Part shown: positions 5,076 through 18,415 of the stretch, piece after piece
Numbering within the stretch: position 1 is the first letter of the stretch
Layout: each line of letters begins with the position of its first letter
NCBI RefSeq assembly: GCF_016127575.1
Contig: NZ_CP066019.1
Location: forward strand, 2,790,001 to 2,822,000
Direction: 5' to 3'
DNA length: 32,000 nucleotides
Source of the DNA: Cupriavidus necator
GTDB lineage: Bacteria; Pseudomonadota; Gammaproteobacteria; Burkholderiales; Burkholderiaceae
Notes under the pieces: generated by a model
Database searches by the model: none
The model's input: the letters and a program-made list of their open reading frames with translations, nothing else
What the model was told of the DNA's origin: nothing
Translations under genes and position numbers: made by a program

Positions 5076-7370
5076 ATGAAGGCAGCCTCATTCCATTGCT
5101 TGCACAAACTGCTCGTGCCGGCGGTCCTGGCACTGGCTGCGGGCTCGGTCCTGGCCGCTGAGCCGGCATCCATGCCAACGGCCTCGGGCATCGAGCCGCC
5201 CGCAGACCAGGCCGCGGCAGCCACGCCGCAGGTGGCCGCGGGCGCGCGCCCCCGCATCTGCCTGGTGCTCTCGGGCGGCGGCGCGCGCGGCGCGGCCCAT
5301 ATCGGCGTGCTCAAGGTGCTGGAGGCGATGCGCATCCCGGTCGACTGCATCGCAGGCACCAGCATGGGTTCGCTGGTGGGGGGCGCCTATGCCACCGGCA
5401 TGGCTCCCGCCGAAATGGAGCGGCTGGTCGGCGGCCTGAGCACCGACAGGATCTTCAAGGAACGCCCGCCGCGCCAGGACCTGACCATCCGGCGCAAGCA
5501 GGACGATTTCACCAACCTGTTCACGCCCGAGATCGGAGTGCAGGCCAGCGGCCTCTTGCTGCCCAAGGGCGCGGTCTCGGGCGTGCAGTTGGAGACCGTG
5601 CTGCGCCAGCTGGCCAAAGTGCCCGGCTACCGGGACTTCGACCAGTTTCCGATTCCCTACCGCGCTGTCGCCACGGACCTGGTGGCAGGCACGCCGGTGG
5701 TGTTCAGCCAGGGCGAGCTGGCCAACGTGATGCGCGCCAGCATGTCGGTGCCGGGCGCGGTGGCGCCGGCCGAGTACGAGGGGCGGCTGCTGGTCGACGG
5801 CGGCCTGACCGACAACCTGCCGGTGGACGTGGCGCGCAGGATGGGCGCCGATATCGTGATCGCGGTGAACCTGGGCACGCCGCTGATGAGGCGTGAGGAA
5901 CTGACCTCGATCATCGGCGTGACCGGCCAGATGCTCAATATCCTGACCGAGCAGAACGTGCGTGCGTCGCTGGCCTCGCTGCGGCCCACCGACGTGCTGA
6001 TCGAGCCGGCGCTGGGCGATTTTTCCGCGACCGACTTCGACCATCTGCCGGCAACTATCCCCATCGGCGAGGCTGCCGCGCGCAAGGTCGCCGACCGCCT
6101 CGCGCCGCTGGCGCTGCCGCCGGCGCAATATGCACAACTGCGCGCCAGGCAACAGGCGGTGCAGCCGCCTGACACCCGCCCGGTCGATGAGATCCGGCTG
6201 GCGCCGCTGCAGCGCGTCAACCCGGACTACGCCACCGCGGTGATGGAAACCAAGCCCGGGCAGCCGGTCGACCAGGCCACGCTGGACCAGGACATGCGCC
6301 GCCTGTTCGGCACCGGCGACTTCGAGCACGTCAACTACGGCATCCTGGAAGAGCCCGGCAAGCGCGTGCTGGCGGTCAATGCGGTGGAAAAATCCTACGG
6401 TCCCGACTACCTGCGCTTCGGGCTCGGGCTGAGCTCGGATTTCCGCGGCGATGCCTACTTCAACCTGGTGGGCAGCTACCGGCGCACCTGGCTCAATGCG
6501 CTTGGCGCCGAATGGCGCACCGATGCGCAGGTGGGCCAGACCTCGTCGCTGATCAGTGAGTTCTACCAGCCTCTGGATACGCGCCAGTATTTCTTTATCG
6601 CGCCGCGCATCGAGCTGGAGCGGCGCCCGGTCAATGTCTTCCAGGGCAGCACGCGCATCGCCACCTATGACCTGCGCCGCTTTGACGTCGCGCTGGACGC
6701 GGGCAGCCAGTTCACCAAGTACGGCGAGCTGCGCGTGGGCTTGCAGACCGGCGCGGAACACGCCACGCTGAGCACCGGCCCGGAGTCGCTGTCGCCAGGC
6801 CCGGGCAATATCCGGCGCGGCGCCATCACCGGGCGGCTCATCTTCGACCAGCTCGACAGCGTCGACTTCCCGCGCTTCGGCTATGCGGCCCGGTTTCACA
6901 TCTACGGCTCGCAGCCGGGGCTGGGCGCCGACCAGGCTTATGTCAAGGCGCAGGCGGACGGCATCTATGCCCACTCGTTCGGCGACAACACGGTCTCGCT
7001 GGCCTTCAAGGTCGGCAGCAATATCGGCGGCAAGCCGTTGCCGCGCTATGACCTGTTCCAGTGGGGCGGCTTCCTGCAGCAATCCGGTTATGCCACCGGG
7101 CAACTGCTGGGCGGCAACCTGCAGTTTGCGCGGCTGGTCTACTACAACAAGCTGGCGCGCCAGACCCTGCTGCAAGGCGTGTACGCAGGCTTTTCGCTGG
7201 AGGCGGGCCGCATGGGCGACCCGCTGGTGCCGGGGAGCCCGACCGGGCTGCTCAAGTCCGGCTCGGTCTTCCTGGCGCTGGACAGTCCGCTGGGCCCGCT
7301 TTACCTGGCCTATGGCCGCGCCGCCGCAGGCACATACAGCTTTTACCTGTTCCTGGGTAAACCCTTCTGA
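5076..7370 (+). CDS. patatin-like phospholipase fused to a POTRA/Omp85-type beta-barrel (PlpD-like, type Vd autotransporter architecture)
   Basis: 764 aa. It has a signal peptide (VLALAAGSVLAAEP), a patatin oxyanion hole GGGARGAAHIGV, the nucleophile motif GTSMG and the catalytic DGG (LVDGGLTDNLP). The C-terminal about 330 aa are rich in alternating beta-strand pattern and end in an aromatic residue (LGKPF). Confidence 0.9.
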   Translation: MKAASFHCLHKLLVPAVLALAAGSVLAAEPASMPTASGIEPPADQAAAATPQVAAGARPRICLVLSGGGARGAAHIGVLKVLEAMRIPVDCIAGTSMGSLVGGAYATGMAPAEMERLVGGLSTDRIFKERPPRQDLTIRRKQDDFTNLFTPEIGVQASGLLLPKGAVSGVQLETVLRQLAKVPGYRDFDQFPIPYRAVATDLVAGTPVVFSQGELANVMRASMSVPGAVAPAEYEGRLLVDGGLTDNLPVDVARRMGADIVIAVNLGTPLMRREELTSIIGVTGQMLNILTEQNVRASLASLRPTDVLIEPALGDFSATDFDHLPATIPIGEAAARKVADRLAPLALPPAQYAQLRARQQAVQPPDTRPVDEIRLAPLQRVNPDYATAVMETKPGQPVDQATLDQDMRRLFGTGDFEHVNYGILEEPGKRVLAVNAVEKSYGPDYLRFGLGLSSDFRGDAYFNLVGSYRRTWLNALGAEWRTDAQVGQTSSLISEFYQPLDTRQYFFIAPRIELERRPVNVFQGSTRIATYDLRRFDVALDAGSQFTKYGELRVGLQTGAEHATLSTGPESLSPGPGNIRRGAITGRLIFDQLDSVDFPRFGYAARFHIYGSQPGLGADQAYVKAQADGIYAHSFGDNTVSLAFKVGSNIGGKPLPRYDLFQWGGFLQQSGYATGQLLGGNLQFARLVYYNKLARQTLLQGVYAGFSLEAGRMGDPLVPGSPTGLLKSGSVFLALDSPLGPLYLAYGRAAAGTYSFYLFLGKPF

Positions 7371-7499
7371 GCCGGTCAGCATAAGCATCCAGAAAATGTG
7401 AGCCGGCCGCACCCTACCAAAGTTGTATGTAATGTCTTAATTCAAATGTCTATACTTTTTACGTCACCAAGACCCCCTCTTGAATGACGACCTTCCCCG

Positions 7500-7530
7500 G
7501 TCGCCGCTCCCCAGCGGCGACATTTTTTTT
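7500..7530 (+). terminator. rho-independent terminator
   Basis: A perfect 9-bp stem GTCGCCGCT / AGCGGCGAC (7500-7508 / 7513-7521) with loop CCCC, followed by A plus eight T (7523-7530). Confidence 0.7.
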
Positions 7531-7560
7531 GGGCGCCCGCCTGGCATGCGGCGCCTATGA

Positions 7561-7728
7561 TCCGCGCCTCGGGCTGCACTGGCGGGCGCTCCGCGCCTTT
7601 GCTGCACCAGCGGGCACGGCGTGTGCGGCCTGTCGCGGGGCTCGGTGCGCTCGCTGGCCGCCACGGTGACCTTCATGGCGGCGGGCTTCCTGACGGTGCT
7701 GGTGCAGCGCCATTGGCTGGGAGGCTGA
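7561..7728 (+). pseudogene. remnant of a YeeE/YedE-family (sulfur-transport type) membrane protein gene, C-terminal part only
   Basis: The frame ending in TGA at 7726-7728 reads ...[42 protein letters not shown]. This is the [14 protein letters not shown]-terminal signature of the small YeeE/YedE proteins. The frame is closed by a stop at 7558-7560 and has no start codon. Upstream similarity continues only in another frame. Confidence 0.55.
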
Positions 7729-7960
7729 CCGATGGGCACGCTCTTCTCATTGCTGGCCGGGCTGGTATTCGGCATCGGCCTGATCCTGTCCGGCATGGCC
7801 AACCCGACCAAGGTGCCTGGGGTTTCTCGACCTGGCCGGGGCCTGGGACCCGTCGCTCGCCTTTGTCATGGCCGGCGCGATCCTGGTGGGAGTGGTGGCC
7901 TTCGCACTGGCGCGCCGGCGCCAGCGCTCCTGGGCGTTGATGCCGTGCAGCATCCGGCCC

Positions 7961-8040
7961 GCGTGCCATGCGTGCCATGCGTGCCATGCGTGCCATGCGT
8001 GCCATGCGGGCGATGCGGGCGATGCGGGCGATGCGCGCAT
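7961..8040. repeat. 9-bp tandem repeat array, GCGTGCCAT x5 then GCGGGCGAT x3 then partial GCGCGCAT
   Basis: Read directly: 7961-8005 holds five exact copies, 8006-8032 holds three exact copies of a 2-substitution variant, and a degenerate copy follows. Confidence 0.95.
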
Positions 8041-8048
8041 GCAGCAAA

Positions 8049-8070
8049 GGCTGGCCCCTGGCGGCCAGCC
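8049..8070 (+). other. GC-rich hairpin between the repeat array and the IclR gene (possible weak terminator or insulator)
   Basis: GGCTGGCC (8049-8056), a 6-nt loop, then GGCCAGCC (8063-8070), followed by GGTTTAAGATT. The U-tract is poor. Confidence 0.3.
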
Positions 8071-8122
8071 GGTTTAAGATTGCGCGATTATCGGACAACA
8101 AGCCCAGACAACACACCTCCCA

Positions 8123-8971
8123 ATGGACGTCCTCCGCCCCCTCGGTCTTGGCCATGCACAGGCCGACACCGTCCGCGTTGCCCGGCCCCAGGCCGACCTG
8201 CTCGCCAGTTTTGCCGGCGATCCCAACTTCATGCTGTCGCTGGCGCGCGGGCTGACCGTGCTGGAGGCGTTCTCGGAACGCAAGCGCCCGCTGACGATCT
8301 CGCAGGTGGCGCAGCGCACGCAGCTGTCGCGCGCCTCGGTGCGGCGCTGCCTCTATACGCTGGAACAGCTCGGCTACGTCAGCCAGCAGGACGGCCAGTT
8401 CGCGCTGCGGCCGCGCGTGCTGCACCTGGGCCACGCGTATTTCTCGTCGACCTCGCTGGTGTCTCTGGCGCAGCCGATCCTGGACAACCTGAGCGCGCGC
8501 ATCCACGAGACCTGCACGCTGGCGATCCTGGACGGCACCGACATCCTGTACCTGGTGCGCTCCGAAGTGCAGCGGGTGCTGAACTATTCGCTAGGCATGG
8601 GCAGCCGCCTGCCGGCCTACTGCACCTCCAACGGCCGGCTGCTGCTGGCGCACCAGCCCGCCACGGTGCTGGACGGCTTCTTCGAGCACGCCGAACTGCG
8701 CCCGCGCACGCTGCAGACCAAGGTCTCGCGCCAGGAGCTGGAAGCATGCTTCGAGCGCGCCCGCGAAGTGGACTACGTGATCGTCGATGAGGAGCTGGAA
8801 CCGGGCCTGCGCGCGATGGCCGTCCCGGTGCGCTCGGCCTCGGGCATCGTGCTGGCGGGGCTGAGCGTGAGCGTGCGCGCCGCGCGTGTCTCTGAAACAG
8901 AGATGATCTCGCGGCTGCTGCCGCCGATACGCGAAGCCGCGGCGGCAATTGGCCGGCTGATCGGCTCCTGA
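8123..8971 (+). CDS. IclR-family transcriptional regulator, PcaR-like
   Basis: GDPNFMLSLARGLTVLEAFSERKRPLTISQVAQRTQLSRASVRRCLYTLEQLGY and GSRLPAYCTSNGRLLLA closely follow the PcaR/PobR subgroup pattern. The start codon is uncertain because no SD precedes 8123. Confidence 0.85.
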   Translation: MDVLRPLGLGHAQADTVRVARPQADLLASFAGDPNFMLSLARGLTVLEAFSERKRPLTISQVAQRTQLSRASVRRCLYTLEQLGYVSQQDGQFALRPRVLHLGHAYFSSTSLVSLAQPILDNLSARIHETCTLAILDGTDILYLVRSEVQRVLNYSLGMGSRLPAYCTSNGRLLLAHQPATVLDGFFEHAELRPRTLQTKVSRQELEACFERAREVDYVIVDEELEPGLRAMAVPVRSASGIVLAGLSVSVRAARVSETEMISRLLPPIREAAAAIGRLIGS

Positions 8972-12203: not shown

Positions 12204-12704
12204 TCAGCCGGGCGTGGTGCCGACGCCTTCGCGCTGCAGCAAGGCGCGCTTGCGCTCGATGCCGCCGGCGTAGCCGGTCAGCGCGCCGGCGCTGCCCAGC
12301 ACGCGATGGCAGGGCACGATCACCGACAGCGGGTTGCGTCCCACCGCGCCGCCGACTGCGCGCGCATGCGTGGGCGGCAGGCCCAGGGTGCGGGCCAGTT
12401 CGCCGTACGACGCGGTCTCGCCGCAGGGGATGGCCAGCAGCGCCTCCCACACGCGCTGCTGGAACGGGCTGCCGGCAAAGCGCACCGGCACGGTGAAGGT
12501 ATCGCGGCGGCCGGCGAAATATTCGGCCAGTTCCGACGCGGCGCCGTCGAGCACCGCGGCATCGGCCGGCGACACGTCGCGGCTGTCGGCAATGCCCGCG
12601 GGATGGTATTTCTGCCCGGCGAAGAAGAGGCCGGTCAGGTGTGCGCCTTGCACGCGCAGCAGGATGGTGCCGAGCGGGCTGTCGATATGGCGATAGCTGG
12701 TCAT
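12204..12704 (-). CDS. ogt: methylated-DNA--protein-cysteine S-methyltransferase
   Basis: It has the PCHRV active site plus the GETASYGELA and NPLSVIVPCHRVLG context. The ATG at 12704 overlaps the stop of the upstream gene (ATGA). The longer ORF-track version (to 13559) overlaps the Ada-AlkA gene out of frame. Confidence 0.9.
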   Translation of the reverse strand: MTSYRHIDSPLGTILLRVQGAHLTGLFFAGQKYHPAGIADSRDVSPADAAVLDGAASELAEYFAGRRDTFTVPVRFAGSPFQQRVWEALLAIPCGETASYGELARTLGLPPTHARAVGGAVGRNPLSVIVPCHRVLGSAGALTGYAGGIERKRALLQREGVGTTPG

Positions 12705-14182
12705 GTGATCGTCTCCGGTTCGGCCGCGGCGCTGGCCGCGTCCTTCATCGCTTCGTAGCGATGCCACAGGTGGATGGCGGCGTAGGCACGCCACGGTGCC
12801 CATTGCGCGGTGCGCTCGTGCATCGCGCGCACGGTACTGACGCCCAGCACCTTGCGCAGCGCATAGTCGGTGCCGGGGAACGCATCGGGCCAGCCCAGCG
12901 CGCGCATGGCGACATACTGCGCGGTCCAGTCGCCGATGCCGTCGACCTCGCGCAGCGCCGCCACGGTCAGTTCCGGCTGCGCGTGCGCATCGAGGGCCAG
13001 CGTGCCGTTGGCCACGCGCTGCGCCAGCGCCAGCAGCGTGCGCGCCTTGCCCGCCGACACCCCGGCATCGCGCAAGCCTTGCTCTGGCAGTGTGGCAATG
13101 GCGGCGGCACTCGGGAACGTGTAGCGCAGGCCGTCCGGGGGCGTGCCGTCCAGCGCCTGTCCCGCGTGCCGCGCCAGCGCGCCCAGGATGCGCCGCGCCT
13201 GCACCACCGAGATCACCTGCCCCACCACCGCGCGCACCGCGATCTCGAAGCCATCGACGCTGCCCGGCAGGCGCACGCCCGGCATGGCCTCGGCAAGCTC
13301 GCCCAGGTGCCGGTCCACCACGTCCGGGCGGCAGCCCAGGTCGCACAGGCGGCGCACCTTGCCCAGCGCCTGCGGAATGACGCGCGCCAGCGAGGCCGAC
13401 AACGTCACGCGCAGCACCAGCCGGCGCGGCACGTGTTCGATCCGTACCCAGCCGGTGTGCGTGCTGCCGCCGGCATCCACCAGCAGCGTGCGCATATAGG
13501 TGCCGTCCCGGATCGCCTCGATGCCATCCACCGCGCGGGTAGCCAGGAAACGCAGCCATGCCTCCCAGGCAAACGGCGGGCGGTAACCCAGGTCGAACAC
13601 CAGCCGGTCGGCCACGCCGTCGGCGGCGCGGCGGCGCAGCGCCAGCGGCGTCAGGCCGTAGCGGGTCTTCAGCACATCGTTGAAGCGGCGCACGCTGCCG
13701 AAACCCGCCGCCAGCGCCACTTCGGTCACCGGCAGCGCGGTGTCGGCCAGCAAGCGCTTGGCCAGCAGCAGCCGCTGCGTCTGCGCGTACTCAAGCACCG
13801 ACACGCCGAACTGCGCATCGAACAGGCGCCGCAGGTGCCGCTCGGTCACGCCGATGCGCGCCGCCAGCGTGGCCACGCTGCCTTCGGCCATGAAGCCCTC
13901 GTCGATCAGCGTGGCCGCTGCCTGCGCCAGCCGGCCTGAAATATCGGCCAGCCCATGCCCGGGCGCAAGCTCCGGACGGCAGCGCAGGCAGGGGCGGAAG
14001 CCATGCTTCTCCGCCGCCGCGGCGCTCTCGTAGAAGGTGCAGTTTTCGCGCTTGGGCGTGCGTACTGCGCACACGGGCCGGCAGTACACGCCGGTCGACG
14101 ACACGCCCACGAAGAAGCGTCCGTCGAAGCGGCGGTCGTGCGAGGCGACGGCCTTGTAGCAGGTGTCGGGATCGAGGTGCAT
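12701..14182 (-). CDS. Ada N-terminal (Zn methylphosphotriester acceptor) / AraC HTH / AlkA DNA-3-methyladenine glycosylase II fusion protein
   Basis: The N-terminus RFDGRFFVGVSSTGVYCRPVCAVRTPKRENCTFY...FRPCLRCRP is the Ada Cys4 Zn module. An AraC-type HTH follows (ERHLRRLFDAQFGVSVLEYAQTQR). The C-terminus carries the HhH-GPD glycosylase (VDGIGDWTAQYVAMRALGWPDAFPGTD). Confidence 0.9.
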   Translation of the reverse strand: MHLDPDTCYKAVASHDRRFDGRFFVGVSSTGVYCRPVCAVRTPKRENCTFYESAAAAEKHGFRPCLRCRPELAPGHGLADISGRLAQAAATLIDEGFMAEGSVATLAARIGVTERHLRRLFDAQFGVSVLEYAQTQRLLLAKRLLADTALPVTEVALAAGFGSVRRFNDVLKTRYGLTPLALRRRAADGVADRLVFDLGYRPPFAWEAWLRFLATRAVDGIEAIRDGTYMRTLLVDAGGSTHTGWVRIEHVPRRLVLRVTLSASLARVIPQALGKVRRLCDLGCRPDVVDRHLGELAEAMPGVRLPGSVDGFEIAVRAVVGQVISVVQARRILGALARHAGQALDGTPPDGLRYTFPSAAAIATLPEQGLRDAGVSAGKARTLLALAQRVANGTLALDAHAQPELTVAALREVDGIGDWTAQYVAMRALGWPDAFPGTDYALRKVLGVSTVRAMHERTAQWAPWRAYAAIHLWHRYEAMKDAASAAAEPETIT

Positions 14183-14287
14183 GACGGCATGCTACCGCTA
14201 CCGGCAACCGCTTACCCGCTGGATTCGGACATTTCCCTCTGGCGCGCGGGCGTGGGCTGCGGCACAGTTCCTGGCAGGGGCGGCGGC

Positions 14288-14293
14288 TAGAAT
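14288..14293 (+). promoter_or_regulatory. candidate -10 box (GCTAGAATG context) for the M16 peptidase gene
   Basis: TAGAAT lies 52 nt upstream of the ATG at 14346. The same CTAGAATG octamer recurs upstream of three other genes in the window. Confidence 0.35.
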
Positions 14294-14345
14294 GCGCTTC
14301 GTGCCTCACCCGCCAACCCACTGCCACCGCCCGCCCGGAGACGCC

Positions 14346-17192
<2,847 letters not shown>

Positions 17193-17321
17193 CATACGCA
17201 GGAAACAATATTCGGCTGCACTGGCGAAAGGCCGCAGGCGCGGCCAGCGCAACATCGCAGTGGCAAGGCAGGGAGCGCTCGGCAGGCGTCCGGTGCAAGC
17301 CCCTTGCCGCGACCCCGGGTT

Positions 17322-17341
17322 GACTGTATATTCGTACAGTA
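17322..17341. promoter_or_regulatory. LexA (SOS) box overlapping a promoter
   Basis: GACTGTATATTCGTACAGTA has the form CTGT-N8-ACAG and matches 16 of 20 positions of TACTG(TA)5CAGTA, including all CTG/CAG positions. It overlaps TTGACT (17320-17325) and TATAAG (17340-17345), 23 nt upstream of the ATG at 17364. Confidence 0.75.
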
Positions 17342-17363
17342 TAAGTCGATATAAGAGGTGTGG

Positions 17364-17738
17364 ATGTCAATCGTGCGAGCTGGCAGCAAGGCAGAAGCGC
17401 TCAGGCTTCTGGCCTCGGAAGGTGTGCTGGCGCTTGAGCTGGACTACGAGACAGGATGGCAGGATGCCGTCGAACTCGGCAGGCTCGGAGAAAAGCGCGG
17501 TATCAAGGTGCAGTATCGCGGACAAGAAAGCATCGCCGTCCGTTCCCGCGAAGCCCTGATCGAAGGGCTGGCCAAACCCAAGGCCACGTTCCGTCAACGC
17601 AATCTCTATTGCCAGTTCGATCTCGGCACGCTGGCGGACCATGAACTGCTCGACCTCGAGGCCAAGGCCACGCGGCTCGGGGACTATATCCTCGCCGGCC
17701 ACCTGCTGCGCGATGTCGATGGCGTGTGGCCGCAATAA
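17364..17738 (+). CDS. hypothetical protein, predicted SOS-regulated (124 aa)
   Basis: The ATG at 17364 is preceded by AAGAGG (17353-17358). The ORF-track start at 17358 is a GTG inside the RBS spacer. The protein looks soluble and charged and has no recognisable family. A LexA box sits in its promoter. Confidence 0.6.
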   Translation: MSIVRAGSKAEALRLLASEGVLALELDYETGWQDAVELGRLGEKRGIKVQYRGQESIAVRSREALIEGLAKPKATFRQRNLYCQFDLGTLADHELLDLEAKATRLGDYILAGHLLRDVDGVWPQ

Positions 17739-17774
17739 GCGGCTTGCGCGCACGCCGGGCCACTAGAAGAGAAA

Positions 17775-17795
17775 AAGCCGCCATGCAGGCGGCTT
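17775..17795. terminator. bidirectional-type hairpin terminator between convergent genes
   Basis: Stem AAGCCGCC / GGCGGCTT with loop ATGCA. An A-run lies upstream on the plus strand, giving TTTTTCTCTTC after the stem on the minus strand. This fits termination of the minus-strand operon ending at 17840. Confidence 0.55.
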
Positions 17796-17839
17796 CCGTC
17801 ATATTGCGCTGAGCACGTTCTTCGTGCCCGATGCCCCGG

Positions 17840-18415
17840 TCAATGCCACACCCGCGTGGCGTTGGCCCAACGCGCCGCGCACGACGACTGCGCTACGGCC
17901 GCGTCGATCGTTTCGTTGGCGGCCTCCGCCGCCGGCACCGTCGCGGCAACATCCAGCGCGGCGCGCCACAGCACCGCCGACACCAGCGTCTTGCATTGCC
18001 GCCGTTCGCCATGCGCAAGCGCGAGCAGCCGCTCATAGCCGTCCAGCACGATCAGCCGGTCACCACGGCGCGGATGCAGCGACAGCGTGTAGAGGTGGTC
18101 AGACTCGCATTGCAGGCTGCCGCCGCTGACCGCGACCACGATTGCACCCGGCAACGCAATGCCGCTGGCCTGGACCTCGCCACGCAAGCGCGCCAGGTAC
18201 GCGTGCGCGCGTGGATCGCAGGTGCCGCCCACACCGCCCGCCATCTCTGCCGGCAGCGCGCAGAGCGCCATCAGCTCGGCCGGCGAAACCGCCAGCGTAT
18301 AGGCCTGCAGCGTGGGACGATAGGTTGCCACCACGGCGCGCAGCCGGTGCGGCGCATCGCCATCATGCCCTGCCTGCAGCGGGCTGTCCGGCCCGCGTAA
18401 CTGCATCGTGTTCAT
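17840..18415 (-). CDS. hypothetical protein (191 aa), possible degenerate ParB/Srx (DGQHR-like) fold
   Basis: Good GC3. GGAG lies 5 nt upstream of the ATG at 18415, only 32 nt downstream of the acyl-CoA dehydrogenase stop. The segment GAIVVAVSGGSLQ...RLIVLDGYERLLALAHGERR resembles the beta-strand plus DGxxR helix core of ParB/DndB-like domains. That assignment is by eye only. Confidence 0.55.
   Translation of the reverse strand: MNTMQLRGPDSPLQAGHDGDAPHRLRAVVATYRPTLQAYTLAVSPAELMALCALPAEMAGGVGGTCDPRAHAYLARLRGEVQASGIALPGAIVVAVSGGSLQCESDHLYTLSLHPRRGDRLIVLDGYERLLALAHGERRQCKTLVSAVLWRAALDVAATVPAAEAANETIDAAVAQSSCAARWANATRVWH

Follow-up and report, generated by a model that had tools for sequence, protein, structure and literature searches.

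A candidate LexA-regulated gene, conserved across Cupriavidus, that codes for a 124-aa protein with relatives on mobile elements

The DNA inspected here is a 32 kb (32,000-nt) stretch of Cupriavidus necator, referred to below as the window. It contains a short open reading frame coding for a 124-aa protein, located downstream of a gene for an M16-family peptidase. The 171-nt gap between the stop codon of the peptidase gene (17192) and the ATG of the short gene holds GGGTTGACTGTATATTCGTACAGTATAAGTCGATATAAGAGGTGTGGATG. Upstream of the peptidase gene lies a gene in the opposite orientation coding for an Ada-AraC-AlkA fusion, i.e. an adaptive-response regulator plus a glycosylase. The features of this region are as follows:

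12701-14182, minus strand: Ada-AraC-AlkA fusion, 493 aa (Ada_Zn_binding, HTH_18 and AlkA_N domains; HhH-GPD sub-threshold)
14163-17192, plus strand: M16-family peptidase ORF, 1009 aa (Pfam Peptidase_M16 and M16_C)
17304-17309, plus strand: probable -35 element, TTGCCG (promoter scan; overlaps a conserved CTTG)
17321-17342, no strand assigned: predicted LexA (SOS) box, 22-mer TGACTGTATATTCGTACAGTAT, with the core CTGT-N8-ACAG at 17324-17339
17327-17332, plus strand: probable -10 element, TATATT, within the LexA box (promoter scan; invariant in orthologues)
17353-17358, plus strand: ribosome binding site (RBS) AAGAGG, 5 nt before the ATG (read from the sequence)
17364-17738, plus strand: CDS of the 124-aa protein, 13.8 kDa, pI 5.7 (ORF; stop codon at 17736-17738)
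17773-17797, no strand assigned: GC-rich hairpin between convergent genes (found by the terminator scan on the minus strand only)

The 16-nt core of the predicted box (17324-17339) is CTGTATATTCGTACAG, the sole exact CTGT-N8-ACAG in the 32 kb window, and is separated from the ATG (17364) by 24 nt. The bare CTGT-N8-ACAG pattern is not significant, at least one match having been obtained in 28 of 100 dinucleotide-preserving shuffles. A 22-column matrix was built from 27 distinct LexA sites of C. necator H16, C. metallidurans CH34, C. taiwanensis and R. pickettii (PMC3323433, supplementary file 4), all of them computational predictions themselves. The 22-mer at 17321-17342 scored 30.6 bits on the plus strand and 32.9 bits on the minus strand, compared with 24.7-44.5 bits for the 27 sites on their own matrix and a maximum of 14.6 bits among the shuffles (n = 100). 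This score, within the range of the predicted Cupriavidus/Ralstonia sites and far above the shuffles, speaks for LexA regulation. The matrix scan found no other LexA-like site above 8 bits in the 32 kb window, and the box has a single downstream target, the 124-aa ORF. A near-consensus box lying in an AT-rich patch had been proposed in the first-pass annotation of this DNA, and both observations were borne out: the 60-nt segment starting at 17321 has a GC content of 42%, the second lowest in a window of 69% GC. The most AT-rich patch (7391-7450, 32% GC over 60 nt) is intergenic and lies 3′ of a 764-aa ORF (5076-7370); a search for a LexA-like site in it found none.

The promoter scan identified the hexamers TTGCCG and TATATT separated by a 17-nt spacer, with 9 of 12 matches. 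The operator (17321-17342) covers the -10 element and the spacer of this predicted promoter, which would correspond to the classic layout for repression by occlusion. Among 52 distinct orthologous upstream regions, the CTTG at 17302-17305 was ∼90–100% conserved and lay at a fixed distance from the box, the TTG of the -35 element being the only other strongly conserved upstream block. The GAGG of the RBS was invariant in the orthologues. The promoter had earlier been read as TTGACT (17320-25) and TATAAG (17340-45), but the spacer between these hexamers is only 14 nt and neither is conserved in orthologues, so this assignment was abandoned. The proposal that the 124-aa gene ends at a hairpin terminator fared no better. 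The plus strand following the hairpin stem reads TTCCGTC, that is, just TT, and the T-run lies on the minus strand. The hairpin is therefore a better fit for the convergent ORF at 17840-18415 than for the 124-aa gene, and termination on the plus strand at this site, if any, would be weak. This convergent ORF (191 aa, minus strand) was detected by tblastn at most syntenic Cupriavidus loci with 50–94% identity, well below the values for the flanking acyl-CoA dehydrogenase (94–99%). Searches of Pfam and PADLOC yielded no match to it, and it may be a hypothetical gene that evolves fast.

A scan of one genome per species recovered 80 loci. At loci L001-L051 the protein was 79–100% identical, and most of these loci were syntenic, with the M16 peptidase gene upstream and the convergent 191-aa ORF and the acyl-CoA dehydrogenase gene downstream. 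The box was kept at all 53 orthologous Cupriavidus loci examined, which comprise 50 of L001-L051, L030, L055 and the chromid copy of C. metallidurans CH34. In the first 50 (L001-L051 except L030) it reads CTGTATATT(C/T)(G/A)TACAG and lies 39-42 nt before the ATG. The box is also present upstream of the diverged but syntenic copy of C. gilardii J11 (L055) and of the CH34 chromid copy. At L030 (C. basilensis KF708) it lies 215 nt upstream, with an insertion of ∼175 nt between the box and the RBS. This insert (2810-2985 of that locus) has a TATAAGAG-like sequence at both ends, and could be a small insertion element that separated the operator and promoter from the gene.

Alignment of the 52 distinct orthologous upstream regions showed ACTGTATATT..TACAGT to be invariant, the two central bases of the box to be 70–80% conserved, and the flanking positions to be 40–70% conserved. 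Since pairwise dS values in the coding region are 0.5–0.95, the 18-nt invariant block is not neutral. Retention of the box in the orthologous promoters was thus complete, with invariant arms between diverged flanks. The box also accompanies the gene in C. respiraculi, C. gilardii and C. cauae, despite a different upstream neighbour. In C. respiraculi (L033), ada-alkA lies directly next to the 124-aa gene, in divergent orientation, and the box is located in their common intergenic region. As for the coding sequence, dN/dS values of 0.04–0.20 against eleven orthologues indicate strong purifying selection on the 124-aa protein.

These dN/dS values, together with the 480 homologues found in a database of 5.8 billion proteins, indicate that the ORF codes for a real protein. 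The family is small (61 clusters at 50% identity among 1.84 billion representatives). The 124-aa protein gave no match in Pfam-A or NCBIfam, even at E ≤ 10, and nothing above threshold in PHROGs. Four family members had no match in PADLOC at E ≤ 1, and the distant members of the family showed nothing above threshold in Pfam, NCBIfam, PHROGs or PADLOC. A homologue was absent from the phage collection searched by tblastn. Searches of PDB sequences, both with the single sequence and with a profile, returned no match to the protein; an 18-residue match to an AI-designed TIM barrel was rejected as spurious. The first-pass annotation had described the product as unlike any SOS function, and this description held. 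For the small SOS effectors SulA, DinI, RecX, PsiB, YebG, ImuA and SRAP, there was no Pfam-A match at E ≤ 10 (Pfam includes known small SOS effectors), no PDB sequence match and no structural match. Further, Pfam and Foldseek revealed no relation in sequence or fold to DinI, PsiB, RecX, SulA or any nuclease.

AlphaFold modelled the 124-aa protein with a pLDDT of 81.7, and the most distant family member (P0178) with a pLDDT of 94.3 and a pTM of 0.80. The strand-helix order is b-a-b-a-b-b-a-b-a-b in both models, which predicts a single alpha/beta fold. Neither model had a Foldseek match at E ≤ 0.001 in the PDB, nor did the one searched against BFVD, and TM-scores were ∼0.3; profile and structure-prediction searches alike ended without a family match. 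The idea of a ‘half TIM barrel’ was discarded, the weak Foldseek matches (designed TIM barrels and Rossmann-type enzymes) reflecting generic beta-alpha repeats. Six polar residues (D27, Y28, D34, K73, R79 and D107) are conserved down to 27% identity, a pattern that suggests a ligand-binding or catalytic site.

Among the non-orthologous members examined, all are found on or next to genes of plasmids, ICEs or genomic islands. The paralogues are 62–70% identical, and some genomes hold four or more. The megaplasmid pHG1 has two, and further copies were found on other megaplasmids or on replicons listed as plasmids. One Ralstonia paralogue lies in an integrase-bordered island with genes for H-NS, HU, YqaJ and DUF932 proteins, and one of C. 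necator lies among genes for transposases, H-NS and Hfq. H-NS was the commonest neighbour (10 of 29 paralogue loci). The contig of one distant member includes genes for a TraI_2 relaxase, TopB, a PD-(D/E)XK nuclease and, adjacent to the family member, an MrfA-type helicase; it is read as an ICE or plasmid. Other distant members occur on an Aeromonas MOBH plasmid and on Vibrio plasmids. The most distant one is located two genes after a RecA/UvsX-like recombinase gene, in the same orientation, on a 177-kb contig of 41% GC. This contig (L083) is metagenomic, and the same-strand run at 6583-8765 codes for the recombinase, a 131-aa unknown protein, the family member and a 120-aa protein with matches in phage families of unassigned function (phrog_7810). 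Most of the contig consists of small ORFs with no Pfam match, and it may be a large phage or plasmid. No consistent operon partner was apparent in the paralogue and plasmid loci, where the neighbours had no Pfam match, and the gene stands alone at most loci.

No LexA box was found upstream of the mobile-element paralogues or the distant members, where no site above 14 bits was present near the gene. SOS control is therefore not a property of the whole family. About half of the Cupriavidus/Ralstonia mobile-element paralogues (L052-L082 and L087) share another upstream block, GCTTACAATGTTGC(Y)(R)TGCAA(Y)ATG, located ∼60-115 nt upstream of their start codons. It includes a -10-like TACAAT hexamer followed by a TTGC-N3-GCAA inverted repeat and, often, by a CAGGGC...GCCCTG hairpin. 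This block looks like a promoter and the operator of a different repressor, at roughly the place taken by the LexA box in the chromid copy. A second group of paralogues (L054, L056, L058 and L073) has TTTTTCTTACGTCAGAATTAAGC upstream instead. The 124-aa gene has a GC3 of 0.71 and an overall GC content of ∼62%, in a window of 69% GC, values consistent with a foreign origin. Taking distribution, synteny and low GC3 together, the Cupriavidus chromid copy looks like a mobile-element gene that became fixed in the genus and was rewired to LexA.

The position, score and conservation of the operator make it quite probable that the 124-aa gene is repressed by LexA, inducible by DNA damage and fixed across Cupriavidus. 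The combined proposal, LexA regulation together with a mobile-element origin, is considered probable. The operator, its position and its conservation are observed; LexA binding and induction at the box are deduced from canonical SOS biology. In an undamaged cell, LexA dimers bound at 17321-17342 would exclude RNA polymerase from the sigma-70-type promoter TTGCCG-17-TATATT. DNA damage would lead to RecA-ssDNA filaments and LexA self-cleavage, the promoter would open, and a leader of ∼25 nt with a strong RBS would allow synthesis of a soluble 124-aa alpha/beta protein. On the most parsimonious history, the gene would have been captured from a mobile element, domesticated and placed under LexA in Cupriavidus. 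As to function, we tentatively suggest, at somewhat less than even odds, a small accessory factor in DNA-damage processing; it would act by binding or modifying either a ligand (nucleic acid or nucleotide) or a partner, for instance RecA. Residues D27, Y28, D34, K73, R79 and D107 would then form its active or binding site. This guess draws on loose neighbourhoods, and the prevalence of H-NS is as compatible with a general mobile-element ‘establishment’ or conflict role as with DNA repair.

Several other explanations were considered, one of which concerns the box itself. The palindrome might not be a working LexA operator but a promoter element, or the site of another regulator, upstream of a gene that is not damage-inducible. 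The -10 element lies inside the box, so some conservation would be expected anyway and part of it could reflect the embedded hexamer rather than LexA; further, the minimal pattern arose by chance in 28% of the shuffles. However, the conserved positions are those of the LexA-contacting arms (ACTGT and ACAGT) and the AT-rich spacer (16-18 of 18 positions). Variation at the two central bases is also seen in known sites, the score matches that of the published (predicted) Cupriavidus LexA sites, and the paralogues with other promoters are entirely devoid of the box. This explanation thus appears highly unlikely. Less probable still, to the point of being very hard to sustain, is that the protein is a phasin-like PHA-granule-associated protein, as implied by the name ‘PHA-granule associated protein 4’ given to many family members by NCBI and UniProt. 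A PHA depolymerase gene (10451-11398 of L087) does lie ∼4 kb from a pHG1 copy, and a true Phasin_2 gene (E = 3.5e-25) is found ∼1 kb upstream of the paralogue at L054, L056, L058 and L060. Nevertheless, the 124-aa protein had no Pfam or NCBIfam match at E ≤ 10 to phasin-type or PHA-related domains (Phasin_2, Phasin, PhaP_Bmeg, PHA_gran_rgn). Phasins have an all-helical amphipathic fold, an architecture at odds with the globular alpha/beta order predicted by both models. A literature search for the name found no paper using it, and it is hard to see why a storage-granule protein would be under LexA control. The simplest account of the name is a spill-over from neighbouring phasin genes, adjacent at 4 of the 29 paralogue loci, or PHA depolymerase genes. 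It is probably wrong, and it could mislead bioplastic work on C. necator.

If LexA does control the gene, its product could still serve a purpose other than repair. An SOS-induced inhibitor of cell division, a functional analogue of SulA, SidA or YneA in Cupriavidus, would agree with a gene that is small, stand-alone, LexA-controlled and lineage-specific; the division inhibitors of other clades are non-homologous, small, stand-alone, tightly LexA-controlled and lineage-specific. A sulA column is also absent from the beta-proteobacterial LexA-regulon table (PMC3323433). Yet no similarity to SulA was found in sequence or fold, and the mobile-element paralogues, which escape SOS control and often number several per genome, would be toxic if they blocked division, which renders this role improbable. 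A part in the conflict between mobile elements and their host has a better, though still minor, chance of being correct. The product might act in anti-defence, exclusion or establishment, being kept by the host and switched on when SOS signals prophage or ICE activation. The non-orthologous copies examined all lie near genes for H-NS, HU, Hfq, methyltransferases, AbiE-type toxin-antitoxin systems, ParAB, relaxase or integrase, and the low GC3 suggests acquisition. Against this, PADLOC and PHROGs gave no match, no defence or anti-defence partner is consistently adjacent, and both genus-wide fixation and dN/dS values of 0.04–0.2 would be atypical of arms-race genes, whose turnover tends to be rapid. 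A further and bolder proposal, which we regard as a rather long shot, is that the 124-aa protein represents an alpha/beta family of new structure by which mobile elements manipulate the DNA-damage signalling or recombination of the host, one copy having been captured into the SOS response of Cupriavidus. Such a protein might be, for example, a modulator of RecA or of the replication fork, or an enzyme acting on a nucleotide signal through an Asp/Asp/Asp plus Lys/Arg site. Were this so, it would represent a new class of SOS effector for which no solved structural analogue was found.

The preferred reading remains that of a LexA-regulated gene of mobile-element origin. SOS regulons have been well mapped in only a few model bacteria, and their lineage-specific members are a source of new damage-response functions, including division inhibitors, RecA modulators and mutasome parts. 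The present candidate is unusually clean, with one near-consensus operator, genus-wide conservation, purifying selection, and a confidently predicted fold for which no solved analogue was found. The clean operator, the conservation, the fold and the relatives on plasmids and ICEs make it a tractable case of a mobile-element gene recruited to a host stress regulon.

Judged from its sequence, the 124-aa gene is likely a new member of a well-known type of regulon. Cupriavidus lexA, recA and imuA carry the CTGT-N8-ACAG motif, lexA being tabulated with it for C. necator H16, C. metallidurans CH34 and C. taiwanensis (PMC3323433, supplementary file 4). The 124-aa gene shares with the canonical SOS genes of beta- and gamma-proteobacteria (lexA, recA, imuA-imuB-dnaE2 and splB; Sanchez-Alberola et al. 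2012, PMC3323433) the operator motif, the score range, the promoter-proximal position over the -10 element and the genus-wide conservation. Unlike them, it codes for a product with no recognizable repair, recombination or polymerase domain, and in its box-bearing form it is confined to Cupriavidus. Its box sequence was looked for in the available version of the published beta-proteobacterial regulon table and is absent from it. Literature searches on SOS/LexA in Cupriavidus and on mitomycin transcriptomes returned nothing on the gene, nor any Cupriavidus SOS transcriptome. The suggestion of the first-pass annotation that this is an unassigned LexA-regulon member of the lineage thus gains in silico support from the box conserved at 53 of 53 loci, the purifying selection, the lack of a Pfam match and the absence from the published table.

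The closest published parallels are hypA and hypB, hypothetical genes of restricted lineage distribution for which LexA regulation was predicted in beta-proteobacteria that have multiple chromosomes (PMC3323433). Like the 124-aa gene, these are orphans whose SOS membership was predicted by comparative genomics only, and they too are often found on secondary replicons. Identity with hypA (H16_B0943, Rmet_1637, RALTA_B0767) was considered and rejected, since the features compared (locus tags, box number and box sequences) all differ. In H16, hypA has two boxes of different sequence, at -52 and -11 (PMC3323433), whereas the 124-aa gene has one box ∼40 nt upstream.

With respect to the protein, cREC (PF20274), a divergent receiver domain for which Iyer et al. 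2021 (PMC7824862) proposed a role in processing cyclic phosphates, is likewise a small alpha/beta domain with conserved Asp residues. However, cREC_REC (PF20274) matched only P0178 among the 28 members scanned, over ∼33 residues and with 23.5 bits against a gathering threshold of 27; neither the 124-aa protein nor the other 26 members matched. The top 50 PDB matches of Foldseek for the model with a pLDDT of 94 included no receiver (CheY-like) fold, the best TM-score being 0.34, and no NAD+ or RNA-repair neighbours were seen. The cREC lead was set aside, being a single sub-threshold match unsupported by the fold search.

DinI and PsiB are small modulators of RecA; dinI is chromosomal and LexA-controlled, and psiB is plasmid-borne. 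The 124-aa protein differs from both in sequence and fold, the Pfam DinI and PsiB models being unmatched and Foldseek returning nothing, so that any likeness is by functional analogy only. It is nonetheless, as they are, a small, acidic, soluble protein, with a chromosomal copy behind a LexA box, relatives on conjugative plasmids or ICEs that have no such box, and a distant member encoded two genes after a RecA-like gene. Since the RecA/UvsX-like recombinase and the MrfA-type helicase each lie near one distant member, this analogy and these neighbours together favour a role linked to DNA or RecA for the 124-aa protein.
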